IMG/VR virus record: IMGVR_UViG_2563366964_000004
DNA length: 6,806 bases
From: a virus
Lineage: Duplodnaviria > Heunggongvirae > Uroviricota > Caudoviricetes
Strand: one strand, 5' to 3'
The notes below the pieces were generated by a model. That model saw nothing but the letters and a program-made list of their open reading frames with translations. It was not told the origin of the DNA and did no database searches. The position numbers were made by a program, and so were the translations under genes. Below are positions 230-6,446 of this stretch, in pieces. The stretch's first letter is position 1. Each line of letters begins with the position of its first letter.

Positions 230-2287
230 ATGTTCGTGACTGTTAACGAATTAGTTGGCGTCCCTGGATTGCCAACAACACAACAAGGACTGCGATACAG
301 TCTTAAAAAAAGTGCAGGCAACTCCCCTGAACTGGTTCGCAAGCGTGCTGGCAGCAAAGCATTCGAGTACCACATCGACTGCCTTCCTGAACAGGCGCGT
401 GAAATAGTCAAAGCCCGGCATTATCGGGAGGTGTTGAAACAGTCTGATTGCTCACCCGCTCCAGCGGCACCAAAGCGGGAAGTCACCACGACCCGTGATG
501 AGCTGGCGTTATTACGGCAGTGCCCGGTATTGCTGGAGCGTGAAGTTTCCGACCTTACCGAACGCCAGAAACAGATCGCCGATGCGCGTGCATTATTAGC
601 CGCAGAGGTTGAGCGCCTTCGGGATATCGGTATGTCTCGCGCATCGGCGGTTGAGTTCATCGCCAAAGAGTCACGCAAGGGTTCACTCCCGGAGAACATC
701 CAGGCTGCGGCTGATATTGCCAATGCCCGTAAAGGCTCCAGCCGCCGTGGCGTGGGGGAAAGAACACTCCAGGAATGGCTGTCTGTTTACCTTTCAACCC
801 GCCCTGGTATCGAACGCCTTGCTTTACTGGCCCCAGGCCATCTTAAAGCGCGTAAGCCTGAACAGATTAAGTGGCTCCCTGATTTTCTTGCTCACTGGCG
901 GAAACTCTCAGGCCCTTCCCTGGTTGATGCGTGGCGTTCATTCAAGACTGAATGGCAGGCTATCTATGCGGGACAGCCAGCGATGCTCGCAGTCTGCCCG
1001 TCTTATGATGCCGTTCGCCGTGCGATGGAAAAGTTGCCCAAACGTGAACGCGCTCGCGGCCGTATCAGCGGTTCAGCGGCTCTGGCCTTTGAGGTTTACC
1101 AGAAACGTGACTGGTCACAGATGCCTGTAAATGGTTGCTGGATTGCGGATGGTAAATCGCTGGATATGAAAGTTGCTCATCCGGTCCATGGCCGCCCATT
1201 CACGCCCGAACTGACGCTGGTGATTGATGGACGAACCCGCTTCCTGGTGGGCTGGAGCCTGGCGCTCTCGGAGAACGTCATCGCCGTAGCGGATGCCTAT
1301 CGCTACGCCATGAAATTCCACGGGAAACCTCTTTTTGTTTATTCGGATAACGGTGGCGGCGAAACGAACAAAACGCTGGATGCTGATATCACCGGTATTT
1401 TCACCCGCATGGGGATTGATCACCCGACCAGTATTCCTGGCCGACCTCAGTCTCGCGGGATTATCGAACGCCTGAACGCCGTAATACCGAGAGCGATCGC
1501 CAACAAATTTGATACTTACAACGGATTCGGGGCCGACCGTGAGCATGTCCGGATGACCGGTCGCGCCATCCAGTCAGCGATTAAGGCTCAGGAGAATGGC
1601 CGCGAGCTCACGAGCGTACAGCGTAATGCGCTGCGTAAACTGCCGTCATGGCAGATGCTGCTGGATACCATTGCCGAGGAAGTCGACAAATACAACAACC
1701 TGCATGAGCACAGCGAGTTACCGAAGCGTAATGGTGTTCATATGACGCCAGCACAGTACCGTCGCGAGGTCCTGGCCACTGAGGGGGACGAGATTGAATA
1801 TCTGACGGATATCGAACTTCGTGAAGCCTTCATGCCGGAAATGTGCCGTACGGCCCAGAGAGGCTGGATTGACCTGATGAACAACCAGTATTTCAGCGCT
1901 GACCTGATACAGGTCGATGGTGAAGAGGTTCGTGTTGCCTATGACATTCACGACCCTGCCGCCGTCATCGTTCGCCGTATGGACGGTACTTATGTCTGCA
2001 CCGCCATCTGGAACGGCAACAAGCGTGCCGCGCTGCCAACCAGCATGATGGATATCGCCGTTGAGAAACGCCGCCAACGTCGTCTGAAGCGCATTGACGA
2101 ACAGCGAGAAGAGATTGAAGCAGAGGCGCGAGGACTGCTGCCAGAAAGCGATATGTACCCTGATTTCGGCGCATTAATACCATCAGATGCCGAGCGTATT
2201 AATGATGACCGGGAACACGTGTTCCTGTTCGAGTCAGAGCGAGAAGAGTGGCTGAAAAGTCAGGGCAATAAAAAAGCGGCCTTCTGA
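230..2287 (+). CDS. A: Mu-type DDE transposase (MuA-like), 685 aa
   Basis: Long ORF directly after ner, with AAGGA (216-220) upstream of ATG 230. The N-terminus (VTVNELVGVPGLPTT) resembles the MuA N-terminal DNA-binding domain (SPKECANLPGLPKT). Candidate DDE triad: D307 in WIADGKS (nt 1148-1150), D373 in VYSDNGGG (nt 1346-1348), E413 in SRGIIERLN (nt 1466-1468), with Mu-like spacing. Basic, charged C-terminal tail as in MuA. Confidence 0.9.
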   Translation: MFVTVNELVGVPGLPTTQQGLRYSLKKSAGNSPELVRKRAGSKAFEYHIDCLPEQAREIVKARHYREVLKQSDCSPAPAAPKREVTTTRDELALLRQCPVLLEREVSDLTERQKQIADARALLAAEVERLRDIGMSRASAVEFIAKESRKGSLPENIQAAADIANARKGSSRRGVGERTLQEWLSVYLSTRPGIERLALLAPGHLKARKPEQIKWLPDFLAHWRKLSGPSLVDAWRSFKTEWQAIYAGQPAMLAVCPSYDAVRRAMEKLPKRERARGRISGSAALAFEVYQKRDWSQMPVNGCWIADGKSLDMKVAHPVHGRPFTPELTLVIDGRTRFLVGWSLALSENVIAVADAYRYAMKFHGKPLFVYSDNGGGETNKTLDADITGIFTRMGIDHPTSIPGRPQSRGIIERLNAVIPRAIANKFDTYNGFGADREHVRMTGRAIQSAIKAQENGRELTSVQRNALRKLPSWQMLLDTIAEEVDKYNNLHEHSELPKRNGVHMTPAQYRREVLATEGDEIEYLTDIELREAFMPEMCRTAQRGWIDLMNNQYFSADLIQVDGEEVRVAYDIHDPAAVIVRRMDGTYVCTAIWNGNKRAALPTSMMDIAVEKRRQRRLKRIDEQREEIEAEARGLLPESDMYPDFGALIPSDAERINDDREHVFLFESEREEWLKSQGNKKAAF

Positions 2288-2332
2288 CTGGACATCACAG
2301 GCCGCTGATTTACTAAAACAGAGGAAGTAATT

Positions 2333-3226
2333 ATGTCAGCTAAAAATGAACTTGTCGAACTGATGAAAGCAAAAGGTCTTAACCAGACGCAGGTCGCCCG
2401 CGCTATTGGTAAGAGCTCTGCCGTAATCAGCCAGTACCTGAATAATAAATACGACGGCGATATTGCATCGCTGGAAAACGATATTCGTAGCTTTATCGAT
2501 CGTCAGCATGAAAAAGAGCGCTCGGCACGTATCAGCGTCAAATTTGTTGATACCCCAACAACGCGCAAAGCCGTTGATGTTATACGCATGGCGCACGTCG
2601 AAGGTGATATCAACGTGCTTTACGGCGAAGCCGGTCTGGGCAAGACGATGATTTGCAAAGCCTACGTCTCTAAATACCGGGATGCGTTGCTGATTGAGGC
2701 CGACCCTGGCTACACCGCACGCGTAATCCTGGAAGAACTCTGCAACCTGCTGGGGCTCAGTACCCGCGGCAATATGCATGAACTTAGCGAAGCCTGCATC
2801 AACAAGCTGCGCGACTCTGGGCGCGTGCTGATTATTGATGAAGCTGAGAACCTCCCTCTGCGTGCGCTGGAATCTATCCGCCGCATTCATGACAAAACGG
2901 GGATCGGCATCGTCCTGGTTGGTATGCCTCGCCTGATTCTGAACCTCAAGGGCAAACGCGGTGAGCTCGTACAGCTCTATAGCCGTGTCGGTTTCGCCCT
3001 CAACCTCGGGCATAGCCTGCCGGGTGCTGATATTGACGTCATCGCCAGCAGCGTTCTCCCGGATGGCCTGAATGAAGACCTGAGCAAAGCGCTGTTCAAC
3101 GCATCAAAAGGTAATGCCCGCCGACTGTTCAAGCTACTGCGCGGTGCAGTTCGTACCAGTGCAATGAATGATGTTCCGGTCAGCGGTCATATCGTCAATC
3201 AGATAGCCGAAATGCTGATCCATTAA
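2333..3226 (+). CDS. B: Mu-type transposition ATPase / target DNA activator (MuB-like AAA+), 297 aa
   Basis: RBS GAGGAAG before ATG 2333. N-terminal HTH-like segment (LNQTQVARAIGKSSAVISQYLNNKYDGD, compare MuB FINDKYNGD). Walker A GEAGLGKT (about nt 2624-2647) and Walker B VLIIDEAENL (about nt 2825-2854). Size and position immediately after A match MuB. Confidence 0.9.
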   Translation: MSAKNELVELMKAKGLNQTQVARAIGKSSAVISQYLNNKYDGDIASLENDIRSFIDRQHEKERSARISVKFVDTPTTRKAVDVIRMAHVEGDINVLYGEAGLGKTMICKAYVSKYRDALLIEADPGYTARVILEELCNLLGLSTRGNMHELSEACINKLRDSGRVLIIDEAENLPLRALESIRRIHDKTGIGIVLVGMPRLILNLKGKRGELVQLYSRVGFALNLGHSLPGADIDVIASSVLPDGLNEDLSKALFNASKGNARRLFKLLRGAVRTSAMNDVPVSGHIVNQIAEMLIH

Positions 3227-3246
3227 TCCGGATTTAAGGGGGTTTT

Positions 3247-3525
3247 ATGCTGACTTTAACATCAGATAACACGCTGGTTTCAGCGCTGTATCGTACCGAA
3301 GCTGTTGTCGTTTCCCTCCAGGCTCGTGGCGTGGAAGTGAAAGGCATCGTGGTTCGGGAAGGTCAGCCGGTCATTCGTATTCAGCGCCATGCCATGTGTG
3401 ATTACCTGCTCACCAGCGGTAAAGCCAGCTACATCGAATATGGCCAGGGGAAATCGGGTAAATACCGCCAGGGCCTTTTCATCCAGGACGGCTGTCGTGT
3501 CGTCTGGTCAGAATCTATTCATTGA
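3247..3525 (+). CDS. Hypothetical early-region protein, 92 aa (occupies the position of Mu kil)
   Basis: ORF with RBS AAGGGGG (3236-3242) 4 nt before ATG 3247, 20 nt after the B stop. Same strand and codon usage as neighbours. No family recognised by eye. Confidence 0.6.
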   Translation: MLTLTSDNTLVSALYRTEAVVVSLQARGVEVKGIVVREGQPVIRIQRHAMCDYLLTSGKASYIEYGQGKSGKYRQGLFIQDGCRVVWSESIH

Positions 3526-3537
3526 AGGAGAAAATAA

Positions 3538-3729
3538 GTGGCAAAAGTCGTAATCAGCATAACCGATGCACCGCGCGGCATCAGTGTGGAGTGCCAGGTT
3601 TTTCCAGATGAAAAAGACAGTGAACTGACCCAGAAGGTCGCAGCCACTGTGGGGTATGGCCTGGCTGGCCATGTTAACGAAAAAATCCGTAATGCAATCC
3701 AGAAAAAGGGGAAGTCCAATGTCCACTGA
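3538..3729 (+). CDS. Hypothetical small protein, 63 aa, GTG start
   Basis: Strong RBS GAAGGAG (3524-3530) 7 nt before GTG 3538. Begins 12 nt after the previous stop and its last 11 nt overlap the next gene's start (ATG 3719), suggesting translational coupling. No family recognised. Confidence 0.5.
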   Translation: MAKVVISITDAPRGISVECQVFPDEKDSELTQKVAATVGYGLAGHVNEKIRNAIQKKGKSNVH

Positions 3730-4369
3730 AAACACCATCAAACAATACACTACCACCCAGGCTCCAGAGGGATACTGGACTGATGCTCGCGGCGTTCTGA
3801 CGCCAGTCAGTCTGATTAAAGAAATCGACCGCGATCGCGACCAGCTCGTTGGCGAACTTGTTGAGCAGGCGATTGTCGTTTCCTCTGCTCTGAGTGAGCT
3901 GAAATCACGCGCCTTTGCTGATATTCAGGCGTTTATCGACCTTTCGGCTGAAAAATACGGGGCCACCAAAGGCGGTAAAAAAGGTAATGTCACGCTCTAC
4001 AGCTTTGATGGCCGTTTCAAAATCCAGCGAGCCATGCAGGACAGAATTGCCCTGGACGAGCGTATACAGACTGCAAAGGCGCTTATTGATACCTGTCTTG
4101 CTGACTGGACAGAAGGTGCCCGCCCGGAGCTGAAGGCGCTGGTCAATGAGGCGTTTGATACTGACAAAGAAGGCAATATCAATACCGGGCGCGTTCTGGC
4201 ACTTCGTCGCCTGGAAATTGATGATGAACGCTGGCAGCAAGCCATGCAGGCAATCGGTGAAGCGGTGCAGGTCGTCGGTAGCCGTTCTTATATCCGCGTG
4301 TATGAACGTGTTGGTGACTCGGATGAATATCGTCCGATTGCTCTCGATATTGCCGGTGCGGGGGTGTGA
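3719..4369 (+). CDS. DUF3164-like Mu-prophage early protein, 216 aa
   Basis: The ORF track gives 3656-4369; I prefer ATG 3719 because GGGGAAG sits 5-8 nt upstream and that start overlaps the preceding gene's stop. Size, acidic composition and position after B match the DUF3164 family proteins common in Mu-like prophages. The family call is from memory, not a search. Confidence 0.6.
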   Translation: MSTENTIKQYTTTQAPEGYWTDARGVLTPVSLIKEIDRDRDQLVGELVEQAIVVSSALSELKSRAFADIQAFIDLSAEKYGATKGGKKGNVTLYSFDGRFKIQRAMQDRIALDERIQTAKALIDTCLADWTEGARPELKALVNEAFDTDKEGNINTGRVLALRRLEIDDERWQQAMQAIGEAVQVVGSRSYIRVYERVGDSDEYRPIALDIAGAGV

Positions 4370-4370
4370 T

Positions 4371-4604
4371 ATGTATGTTCTGGTAGATCGCACCCATGCC
4401 CGTAAACCATGCAGTCCATTTATGTCTTATGCAGTCAGCGCTGTACTTGCTGAGCAAGTTGGCGATTTTCATAACGCTGCAACAGCCTGGAAAACTGCAT
4501 TCAGCCTGGCGAAAACAGAGGTCAATTCTATCTGGGCAATATCGCGAATGGAGTTCTGTCTTCATGCGGCGAATCGTGGTTGGGGGATTCCGAATGAAAG
4601 CTAA
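4371..4604 (+). CDS. Small protein, 77 aa, possible ANR/PerC-like regulator
   Basis: ATG 4371 lies 1 nt after the upstream TGA (4367-4369), with GGGGGTG just upstream. The pattern A..AE..GD...AA.AW..A...A...W...R.EFC resembles small ANR/PerC-type prophage regulators as I remember them. The ORF track's longer 4146 start lies inside the upstream gene and is rejected. Confidence 0.45.
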   Translation: MYVLVDRTHARKPCSPFMSYAVSAVLAEQVGDFHNAATAWKTAFSLAKTEVNSIWAISRMEFCLHAANRGWGIPNES

Positions 4605-4785
4605 AGAGTTCAATCTGCGATACCCGGTTGGCAGCGTCTTTATTTATCAGCCAAATCCGGTTTTACGTGGCGGTAAGGTCGTCAGCACCGTTGACCAGGC
4701 TCGTGACTGCCGCGATGTATCGGTAGTTGAAATAAATCAAGAACCTTATTTCGCCAATATTAAATCGCTGATACCAGCTAGCTGA
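4594..4785 (+). CDS. Hypothetical small protein, 63 aa
   Basis: ATG 4594 preceded by TGGGGGATT, overlapping the previous gene's end (4604) by 11 nt. Product MKAKEFNLRYPVGSVFIYQPNPVLRGGKVV... No family recognised. The track's 4396 start would make most of the ORF overlap the previous gene out of frame, so the internal ATG is preferred. Confidence 0.45.
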   Translation: MKAKEFNLRYPVGSVFIYQPNPVLRGGKVVSTVDQARDCRDVSVVEINQEPYFANIKSLIPAS

Positions 4786-4865
4786 AATAACTTTTAATTA
4801 AACCTGTTTTAAATATGGCGTAAACCCGCCGGGGCTGGCTTACGCCTGAATTAAGGAGTTCTGTA
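4786..4865 (+). promoter_or_regulatory. Intergenic region with AT-rich tract, imperfect hairpin and RBS; candidate internal promoter or RNA structure
   Basis: The only intergenic gap over 50 nt in the window. AT-rich TGAAATAACTTTTAATTAAACCTGTTTTAAATAT (4783-4816), then inverted repeat GGCGTAA (4817-4823) / TTACGCC (4840-4846) around a 16-nt GC-rich loop, then AAGGAG (4852-4857) and ATG 4866. No T-run after the stem, so not a classic intrinsic terminator. Confidence 0.3.
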
Positions 4866-5588
4866 ATGGAAAATAAAGAGAAATATCTCCAGCGTATTAA
4901 AAAACTGCTGGCAATGGCGCGTAATAACTCCAGCGCTGAAGAAGCAGCACTCGCGCTGAGCCGCGCCCAGCGCCTGATGGAAACCCACAAACTGACTGAA
5001 GCCGATGCGGCGATGATGGATATCAACGAGGCATCCACTCAGAAAGCCCCATCACATGCTGAAAAGATGCCTGAATATATGGCGCTACTGGCTCATATGA
5101 TAGCGCTGGCATTCGGGGTTAAGTTCTATACCACCCACGGTCATGAGCGCTGGGATGCTCCAGCAAAACGCACCATCACCTATTACGGACCGGACGAACG
5201 TCCGCAGGTTGCAGCTTATTCCTTCGAGGTTCTTGGCAAGCAGCTGGCGAAGGCCCGTCGTGAATACACCGCCACGTTGCGTAAAAATATCAAACCCGCC
5301 ACCAAGGTGGCTCGTGCCGATACGTTCTGCTCTGCCTGGGTGAATGGTGCCTATGCCGTTATCAGTGACTTTGCCGTCACTGAGGCCGAAGAGACTCTCA
5401 TGGAGAGCTATCGCAGCAAAAAACTGAGTCAGGGCATGAAGAAACTGGAGCCTCGTAAACCGGGAAAAGCCAGCGGCACCGATGATGCAGCTAATCAGGG
5501 TTATCGGGCTGGCCGCAATGCGCAGTTACATCATGCTGTGACGGGGTCTTCAAATGCTGTAGCTCGAATTGAAGGGGGACCTCAATGA
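4866..5588 (+). CDS. DUF2786-like phage protein, 240 aa
   Basis: RBS AAGGAG 8 nt before ATG 4866. The N-terminus KYLQRIKKLLAMARNNSSAEEAALALSRAQRLMETHKL matches the DUF2786 signature as I recall it (K.L.LA....N..EAE.A...AQ.LM). The family is frequent in prophages. Its stop overlaps the next start (ATGA at 5585-5588). Confidence 0.7.
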   Translation: MENKEKYLQRIKKLLAMARNNSSAEEAALALSRAQRLMETHKLTEADAAMMDINEASTQKAPSHAEKMPEYMALLAHMIALAFGVKFYTTHGHERWDAPAKRTITYYGPDERPQVAAYSFEVLGKQLAKARREYTATLRKNIKPATKVARADTFCSAWVNGAYAVISDFAVTEAEETLMESYRSKKLSQGMKKLEPRKPGKASGTDDAANQGYRAGRNAQLHHAVTGSSNAVARIEGGPQ

Positions 5589-6088
5589 GAGATATCACCG
5601 CACTGGCGCAACACCTAAGAGTGTATGCCGAAGAATTCAGTTATCCGGTTCTATCTCCTGATGATTGCAAAACGCTGGTAGATGCGCTGGAAGCAGGACA
5701 ACCACACCACAACGGCCTGATGCAGCTCTCTAATGAACTGGTGATGGCTAAGCAGAGAATCGCAGAACTGGAGTCCGGCACAGCCACCGCGTCGCAGAGC
5801 GATTACTTTGCCTCTCTGGTAGCAATGGCTCGTGTTTCAGCAGAAAAAGCGATGCGGAAGTTCCCTCAGCCGAACTACGTGCTTCTTAAGGTTGCGGAGG
5901 AAGCTGGCGAGGTCGTGCAGGCCGGGGTCCATTACGCAGAGAAACGGATGGAGTGGCAGCAGGTAGAGGGCGAGATTGTCCAGCTGTTGGCAATGCTGAT
6001 TCGCCTGGTGACGGAGGGCGACCAGATTAATGGCATCACTCCTCCGGCCGATGGCATCCAGGTTATCGAAGGGGATAATTATGACTGA
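5585..6088 (+). CDS. Protein with MazG-like (all-alpha NTP pyrophosphohydrolase-like) C-terminal half, 167 aa
   Basis: RBS GGGGGA before ATG 5585. The C-terminal half LLKVAEEAGEVVQAGVHYAEKRMEWQQVEGEIVQLLAMLIRL shows the two acidic helices typical of MazG/HisE-like nucleotide pyrophosphohydrolases (EE.GE ... E.E..LL..L..L). The N-terminal ~90 aa is unassigned. This is a fold-level call from motif only. Confidence 0.55.
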   Translation: MRDITALAQHLRVYAEEFSYPVLSPDDCKTLVDALEAGQPHHNGLMQLSNELVMAKQRIAELESGTATASQSDYFASLVAMARVSAEKAMRKFPQPNYVLLKVAEEAGEVVQAGVHYAEKRMEWQQVEGEIVQLLAMLIRLVTEGDQINGITPPADGIQVIEGDNYD

Positions 6089-6446
6089 ACAACAGCGCAA
6101 GCCGGTGGTATTCATCGCCGGGCCGATGACCGGGTATCAGGATTATAACCGGGCAGAGTTCGACGCCGAGGCTAGTGTCCTGTCCGATCGAGGCTTCACC
6201 GTACTAAATCCGGCGATACTTCCAGATGGCCTTGAGCACCAGCAATATCTGGCAATTACGCTGGCGATGCTGGAGCAGGCTGATTCCGTTTTCCTCCTGG
6301 ATGGATGGGAAAAAAGCCGGGGCGCAATGCAAGAATTTCAGCGTGGCCGTGAGTTAGGTCTGGTATTTATGTTTCAGTCATGGGAGACAGCAACCCTCGC
6401 CATTATGCATAACCGCTACTCTCTTCGGGAGGTGACCAGTGAATAA
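6081..6446 (+). CDS. DUF4406 / nucleoside 2-deoxyribosyltransferase-like (DNPH1-like fold) protein, 121 aa
   Basis: ATG 6081 preceded by GAAGGGGA, overlapping the upstream stop (ATGACTGA). Motifs VVFIAGPMTG, VLNPA and LLDGWEKSRGAMQEF (conserved Glu77 at nt 6309-6311) match the DUF4406 signature and the D-G-x-E-x-S-x-G catalytic pattern of that superfamily. The track's 6030 start lies inside the upstream gene and is rejected. Confidence 0.65.
   Translation: MTEQQRKPVVFIAGPMTGYQDYNRAEFDAEASVLSDRGFTVLNPAILPDGLEHQQYLAITLAMLEQADSVFLLDGWEKSRGAMQEFQRGRELGLVFMFQSWETATLAIMHNRYSLREVTSE

Follow-up and report, generated by a model that had tools for sequence, protein, structure and literature searches.

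A candidate Kil relative and a small DUF3164-linked gene downstream of B in a Mu-like enterobacterial prophage

Expression of the kil gene of phage Mu kills the host and makes Escherichia coli cells spherical, not filamentous, according to the account in PMC3961180, which cites Waggoner et al. 1989 for the phenotype. That account presents the kil genes of lambda, Rac and Mu as three unrelated genes, with lambda and Rac kil giving filaments and Mu kil giving spheres (PMC3961180). Beyond the 1989 phenotype, our literature search turned up no study of the mechanism of Mu Kil and nothing newer on the target. Here we analyse a viral DNA stretch of 6,806 nucleotides (nt), IMG/VR record IMGVR_UViG_2563366964_000004, called the window below, which represents the early, left-hand end of a transposable Mu-like prophage from Enterobacteriaceae. 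Two small open reading frames (ORFs), ORF1 of 92 amino acids (aa) and ORF2 of 63 aa, lie between its B gene and a gene for a DUF3164 protein. In the joint explanation that we favour, and consider fairly probable, they are two distinct things within one early operon: ORF1 would be a Kil branch in the kil slot, toxic to the host by analogy, and ORF2 would be a separate accessory of DUF3164. ORF1 is read as a divergent member of a known family, and ORF2 is a real orphan linked to DUF3164; nothing here would surprise a specialist in transposable phages.

Two small genes behind B

The features at this position are the following.

2333..3226, plus strand: gene for a MuB-type AAA+ transposition protein, the upstream anchor of the slot (phrog_296 'DNA transposition protein', E-value (E) 2.3e-94; Pfam AAA_22, E 3.7e-23)
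3236..3242, plus strand: Shine-Dalgarno sequence AAGGGGG of ORF1, 4 nt 5' of the ATG, read from the sequence
3247..3525, plus strand: ORF1, 92 aa, ATG start, PHROG 2041 member and putative remote homologue of Mu Kil
3526..3530, plus strand: Shine-Dalgarno sequence AGGAG of ORF2, 7 nt 5' of the GTG, read from the sequence
3538..3729, plus strand: ORF2, 63 aa, GTG start, orphan small protein directly 5' of DUF3164
3719..3729, plus strand: overlap of ORF2 and DUF3164, ATGTCCACTGA, 11 nt, with the DUF3164 ATG at 3719 and the ORF2 stop codon at 3727-3729
3719..4369, plus strand: gene for the DUF3164 protein, 216 aa, the downstream partner of ORF2 (Pfam PF11363, E 2.4e-83; phrog_846, E 2.6e-94)

The initial annotation of this locus had described two small ORFs directly after B with good ribosome-binding sites, the second overlapping the DUF3164-like gene by 11 nt, and its coordinates, lengths, starts and overlap were all borne out. 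The window lists 68 ORFs of at least 30 aa, and an ORF of such length is not rare by chance. Length alone proves nothing, and conservation was therefore tested. Both proteins are conserved among prophages of Enterobacteriaceae and align well with those of their relatives (compared loci carry L numbers below), and the ratio of nonsynonymous to synonymous substitution rates (dN/dS; Nei-Gojobori, pairwise, unsaturated comparisons) lies well below 1, as expected under the purifying selection that the initial annotation had asked about. It is 0.05-0.14 for ORF1 and 0.05-0.16 for ORF2, next to about 0.02 for MuB and 0.03-0.15 for DUF3164. Between the window and L009, for example, ORF1 has 12 nonsynonymous and 35 synonymous differences (dN/dS 0.067); for ORF2 the ratio is 0.085 between the window and L011, 0.13 between the window and L009, and 0.16 between L005 and L010.

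The exact ORF1 protein occurs on 499 public contigs and the exact ORF2 protein on 265, independently gene-called and always named 'hypothetical protein'. Hosts of the exact ORF1 protein, over hundreds of contigs, are E. coli, Salmonella, Citrobacter, Enterobacter, Kluyvera and Yersinia. The Shine-Dalgarno sequence of ORF1 is kept as AAGG(G/A)GG in closer relatives. The GTG codon of ORF2 is immediately preceded by an in-frame TAA (3535-3537), and ORF2 has no internal Met; comparison of sequences confirms this codon as the probable start, because relatives L005, L009, L010 and L013 have ATG at the same codon and the same N-terminus, MAK(V/I)(V/I)I. The abundance of short ORFs in the window is what would speak for one or both being non-coding chance reading frames. 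This idea is refuted by the low dN/dS of both genes, their kept length and N-termini, the interchange of GTG and ATG, the Shine-Dalgarno sites and the hundreds of gene calls, and its probability is negligible.

ORF1 and the Mu Kil superfamily

The initial annotation placed both ORFs in the position of Mu kil and found that neither resembled a recognised family. The position is right, and the case is stronger than was claimed in that ORF1 also appears to be a remote homologue of Mu Kil; the lack of a recognisable family holds for ORF2 and not for ORF1. ORF1 matches phrog_2041, a family of 'unknown function', with E 4.4e-17, its residues 9-90 aligning to profile positions 16-99 of 101. An exhaustive profile search with ORF1 yielded 56 clusters at 50% identity, nearly all of 70-120 aa, and 54 sequences were aligned (alignment A4). 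All 54 match phrog_2041 (best E 5.8e-31), and the next most frequent PHROGs among them are all labelled Kil: phrog_2743 (eight members, best E 3.9e-5), phrog_6381 (four) and phrog_2679 (one). Mu Kil itself, taken from AF083977, belongs to phrog_2743 (E 1.3e-42) and also matches 6381 and 2679; its fourth match, over the full length, is phrog_2041. ORF1 and Mu Kil share the C-terminal pattern GC.(V/I)(V/I)W. A scan of genome contigs with a second alignment, A1, returned one locus, in Citrobacter murliniae. P0128, a 761-aa match from the representative search, proved to be a surface protein rich in repeats and was discarded as spurious.

Scored with a hidden Markov model (HMM) built from A4, Mu Kil reaches 12.3 bits (E 8.5e-6 as a single comparison), with HMM positions 16-92 on Kil residues 2-73. 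None of 5000 shuffled Kil sequences reaches this score (maximum 10.8), and other Mu early proteins score at most 2.1 bits with the same HMM (12 returned a score). The Kil-like proteins of two Vibrio phages and of Shewanella phage MuM16-2, found by tblastn with Mu Kil, obtain 8.5-17 bits, and their small neighbours about 0. In profile-profile comparisons with hhalign, the probability is 69% with the broad ORF1 alignment, 94% (E 1.3e-7, 89 columns) when the Kil side is extended with Klebsiella, Vibrio and Shewanella proteins, and 93.6% with further 77-aa Kil-type proteins added; the last two comparisons cover 86-89 columns. The families also find each other reciprocally in a sample of 2,598 plus-strand ORFs from about 57 loci. 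With a Kil HMM built without ORF1-type sequences, ORF1-type ORFs take ranks 13-43, directly behind 12 Kil-type ORFs; with the ORF1 HMM, the 12 Kil-type ORFs take ranks 43-54, directly behind the ORF1-type ORFs. The ORF1 and Kil families are each other's best non-self matches in this sample.

Gene order gives a second line of evidence. In the early operon of the window and of every close relative, A and B are followed directly by an ORF1-type gene, and in the BcepMu-like phages KP12 and PhiKM a relative with 37% identity comes after the genes for the transposase and the ATPase. Across about 43 distinct loci (L015 was too short and was left out), exactly one of two types fills the slot after a homologous B, the ORF1 type or a 77-aa Mu-Kil type; no locus has both, and no locus lacks both. 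The two slot groups occur among prophages whose MuB, ORF2 and DUF3164 are homologous to those of the window. The 77-aa type, MC(N/Q)LPINNPELM...RGAHIIWR, is found in L045-L054, L059 and L060 (e.g., L046 2761-2994) and matches Mu Kil directly with phmmer (E 3e-6 to 3e-4). We take the swap between the two types as allelic replacement within one functional slot. In L037 and L040-L045, a homologue of Mu gp6 (E5; Cys-rich, zinc-ribbon-like, 73-75 aa; e.g., L042 2778-2999) sits between the Kil slot and ORF2. These prophages are otherwise near-identical to relatives that lack gp6, which marks the junction between ORF1 and ORF2 as a recombination hot spot.

Several results weigh against a kinship with Kil. 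The window's ORF1 alone reaches the Kil family phrog_2743 with E 0.11 only, and its pairwise BLASTP match to Mu Kil is weak (25% identity over nearly the full length, E 0.002). Comparison of the shallow alignments A1 and A3 with hhalign gives a probability of 6%. The precomputed Pfam domain PF26843 lies on every relative of Mu Kil and on no relative of ORF1, and a search of BFVD with the ORF1 model retrieved one uncharacterised family member, Mu Kil not being among the matches. ORF1 might then be an unrelated small early protein that happens to sit in the kil position, with a different function and a similarity to Kil that arose by chance or convergence. To this we give a small probability, since the deeper profiles raise the hhalign value to 94%, the shuffle and neighbour controls are clean, the reciprocal ranking favours homology, and the two types exclude each other from one slot in homologous backbones.

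How ORF1 is classified depends on how widely the family is drawn. To the narrow Mu Kil family (PHROG 2743 / PF26843) ORF1 itself has no significant match, and a scan of a local Pfam copy, which does not contain PF26843, assigned 0 families to Mu Kil itself. With the Mu Kil superfamily (PHROGs 2743, 6381, 2679 and 2041) it shares profile-level homology over the whole domain that is specific relative to the controls. On these sequence comparisons we regard ORF1 as the probable Kil of this phage, a remote homologue that forms a divergent (PHROG 2041) branch of the superfamily. Clear homology to a characterised Mu early protein, which the initial annotation had named as an argument against its own view of the two ORFs, is thereby found in part, for ORF1 with Mu Kil, and the novelty of ORF1 is therefore lower.

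The AlphaFold2 model of ORF1 is confident (mean predicted local distance difference test, pLDDT, 89.9) and describes a small alpha/beta fold, in which a long helix at the N-terminus precedes a beta-hairpin, another, short helix and a sheet of three strands. The ORF1 profile returned only noise from PDB sequences and no relative of solved structure. Nearly invariant in the family are only L24, P41, A60 and W87, with no acidic motif among them, and ORF1 is therefore not read as an enzyme. A nucleotidyltransferase or RelA-SpoT-like fold enzyme was considered as a candidate and rejected: ORF1 does not combine a match to that fold with conserved catalytic acidic residues.

By analogy with Mu Kil, ORF1 would be made early after induction. 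It is likely to be toxic to the host through Kil-like killing or disruption of cell shape or envelope, rather than as a classical FtsZ inhibitor; the most likely route would be a disturbance of cell-envelope or cell-shape maintenance. The host-lethal role that the initial annotation had offered for both ORFs thus gains support for ORF1, through its putative homology to Mu Kil, and not for ORF2, which stands apart from the kil slot. The division-inhibitor role does not agree with the phenotype given for Mu Kil in PMC3961180, which is spherical cells and no filaments. The RefSeq/PHROG product name 'Kil protein for bacterial septation inhibition' is attached to both Mu Kil and lambda Kil (NC_000929 / NC_001416); going by that account, the wording fits the unrelated lambda Kil, Mu kil giving spheres (PMC3961180).

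These comparisons provide a functional lead for the whole PHROG 2041 family (at least 56 clusters at 50% identity) and link it to Mu Kil, among the longest-known phage toxicity genes without an explanation. The swap of two very divergent types in one slot of otherwise homologous prophages provides a natural pair for finding the target of Kil.

ORF2 as a neighbour of DUF3164

ORF2 has no match in Pfam, PHROG, NCBIfam, PADLOC, PDB sequences or PDB folds (best Foldseek PDB match, E 1.4), and tblastn against phages gave only chance matches in Microbacterium primases. Its model has a beta-hairpin (residues 3-22), one long helix (29-57) and a basic tail. The helix has a glycine-rich GYGLAG face and carries an invariant G.AGHV motif. 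The final VH has to accommodate the DUF3164 start that overlaps it, and its invariance is therefore uninformative on ORF2 itself.

A pattern scan of viral contigs with ORF2 identified 26 loci at 47-98% identity, with DUF3164 following in 26/26, and ORF2 is immediately upstream of DUF3164 in all 31 distinct loci compared that carry it. The overlap, ATG(T/C)(C/T)CA(C/T)T(G/A)A, recurs wherever ORF2 is intact. The exception is the frameshifted L055 (3001-4003), a probable pseudogene in which ORF2 runs on to 85 aa and DUF3164 is broken into pieces of 145 aa and 128 aa, so that the frameshift affects the module. In L005, L016 and L056-58, MuB and ORF1 are identical to those of the window, but ORF2 is a 68-aa allele (about 49% identity) that travels with a different DUF3164 allele (62-69% identity), which indicates a mosaic junction between ORF1 and ORF2. 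The identity of ORF2 correlates with that of DUF3164 (Spearman 0.53) more than with that of MuB (0.33). Insertions, such as that of the gp6 homologue, occur 5' of ORF2 and never between ORF2 and DUF3164 in the loci compared.

ORF2 does not occur in L012, L024-L030, KP12 and PhiKM, all of which keep ORF1, and therefore it is not a partner of Kil. It is a lineage-restricted small protein that belongs with DUF3164, not with the kil slot. Other lineages have an unrelated small ORF in its place: a 66-aa ORF with a GTG start in L024 (3509-3709) and, in Shewanella phage MuM16-2 (L034 1735-1950), the 71-aa p08, with an 8-nt overlap onto the start of DUF3164. Placement of a small gene immediately ahead of DUF3164 may be an arrangement that recurs.

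In our best reading, ORF2 is a translationally coupled accessory of DUF3164. The two are inherited as one module and joined by the fixed 11-nt overlap, through which they would be translated together, and ORF2 may act as a stoichiometric accessory or partner that interacts physically with DUF3164. Some observations count against this. Confidence in the ORF2 model is moderate (pLDDT 69.7). L012, L024-L030, KP12 and the Vibrio phages have DUF3164 but no ORF2, and therefore ORF2 is not generally required for DUF3164 function. Plain genetic linkage would likewise make the two genes adjacent and co-inherited. We found no PDB relative of DUF3164 and, in the literature, no described function for it.

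The main rival to the accessory reading makes ORF2 a small early gene of the 'moron' type, whose product would modulate the host or counter its defences independently of DUF3164 and which adjoins DUF3164 only through tight operon packing. ORF2 forms a narrow, fast-evolving family; its alleles share as little as 45-50% identity even where the prophages are otherwise identical, it is missing from related phages, and unrelated small ORFs stand at the same place in other lineages (66 aa in L024; the 71-aa p08 in MuM16-2); such a pattern is that expected of accessory counter-defence genes. We nevertheless consider this explanation rather unlikely, because ORF2 matches no defence-related or other family, its overlap with the DUF3164 start persists in every intact copy, and insertions fall upstream of it and never within the pair. 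The anti-defence role put forward in the initial annotation is also unsupported in that PADLOC, Pfam, PHROG and NCBIfam give no match, these libraries being poor at detecting anti-defence proteins. Since ORF2 follows the kil slot directly in both ORF1-type and Kil77-type prophages, it could alternatively regulate, or act as an antidote to, the Kil-type toxin of the gene just ahead of it. This we rejected as very improbable: ORF1 occurs without ORF2 in L012, L024-L030, KP12 and PhiKM, the gp6 homologue can part ORF2 from the gene in the kil slot, the ORF2 allele switches while ORF1 stays identical, and phage Mu has Kil and no ORF2 homologue.

A bolder picture, which we think quite improbable, would make ORF2 and DUF3164 a two-subunit early-phase machine of transposable phages, in which a rapidly diversifying small subunit (ORF2 or, in other lineages, the unrelated small ORFs at that place) adapts a conserved DUF3164 core to different hosts or host defences; separately, it would make the Kil superfamily a minimal fold like that of nucleotidyltransferases that has lost catalysis and poisons the maintenance of cell shape. 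ORF2 represents a small family tied to DUF3164, a widespread protein of Mu-like phages, and offers a modest handle for studying it.

The early operon and its described relatives

The window has a further set of genes on either side of the slot.

1-228: gene for a Ner-type regulator (gene order from the ORF list and Pfam/PHROG scans)
230-2287: gene for the MuA transposase (same basis)
4371-4604, plus strand: ANR-family (AraC negative regulator, Aar-like) gene, 77 aa, directly 3' of DUF3164 (NCBIfam NF033650, E 2.6e-18)
between the 77-aa gene and the DUF2786/DUF7168 gene: a 63-aa gene
4866-5588: DUF2786/DUF7168 gene (gene order from the ORF list and Pfam/PHROG scans)
5585-6088, plus strand: 167-aa gene between DUF2786/DUF7168 and DUF4406, with weak MazG/NTP-pyrophosphohydrolase-like PHROG matches
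6081-6446: DUF4406 / nucleoside 2-deoxyribosyltransferase-like gene, adjoining the 167-aa gene

No promoter-like or terminator-like site rises above chance in 2200-4900, and ORF1 and ORF2 are therefore both placed inside the early operon; Rfam has zero matches in the region. The DNA of 3100-3900 found no similarity match in the phage collection searched, and megablast of the window against complete E. coli genomes returned fragments only. One prophage type is present at four different chromosomal sites in four genomes, as expected of an active transposable phage. In GCA_040591245.1 (L004 1-5628), the Mu-like prophage adjoins, or sits inside, the tail-gene region of another (lambdoid-type) prophage. 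The IMG/VR viral contigs L016, L017, L019, L020 and L022 begin exactly at window position 1, which is the ner start codon; the window therefore probably derives from a predicted-prophage contig of this kind, and it is without the repressor gene and the left end that genomic loci show upstream.

Vibrio phage martha has an ANR gene in a place similar to that of the window's 77-aa gene; such an anti-AraC regulator, carried by a phage in its early operon, might influence virulence or metabolic regulons of the host. The 167-aa gene is variable cargo: L005 lacks it, and L006 and L007 have a 141-aa and a 226-aa gene, respectively, in its place. Its place beside the DUF4406 gene might point to a nucleotide-modifying or anti-defence island.

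Among described relatives, the DUF3164 (PF11363) genes of Mu-like phages often follow a Kil-type gene, as in Vibrio phage martha and KP12. DUF3164 and ORF2 are separate polypeptides without similarity, and most DUF3164 genes outside this group of Enterobacteriaceae prophages have no ORF2. Lambda Kil and Rac KilR, FtsZ/division inhibitors that bear the Kil name, resemble the role proposed for ORF1 in being small early prophage proteins toxic to the host. In sequence, however, lambda Kil (47 aa), the one of these two that was scored here, shows no relationship: it returns no score with the ORF1-family HMM and -1.5 bits with the Kil HMM.

The closest described system is Mu Kil (gp5, AAF01084; PHROG 2743; PF26843). 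ORF1 differs from it in that it falls in another PHROG (2041) and is not covered by the precomputed Pfam Kil domain, and the killing and rounding phenotype is known for Mu kil alone. The two are only about 25% identical, and ORF1 is about 18 residues longer, its added residues lying in the second beta-hairpin region and in a C-terminal SE..H. Mu Kil and its relatives in Vibrio, Shewanella and Klebsiella (PHROG 6381, 2679) are nonetheless of similar size, 74-114 aa compared with 92 aa for ORF1. Like ORF1, Mu Kil comes from a small gene that stands first, or early, behind B in the early operon, and the two share the motif L..(R/A)G..V....(R)P(V/I)(I/L).I ... G(C)..(V/I)(V/I)W, the last part of which lies near the C-terminus.
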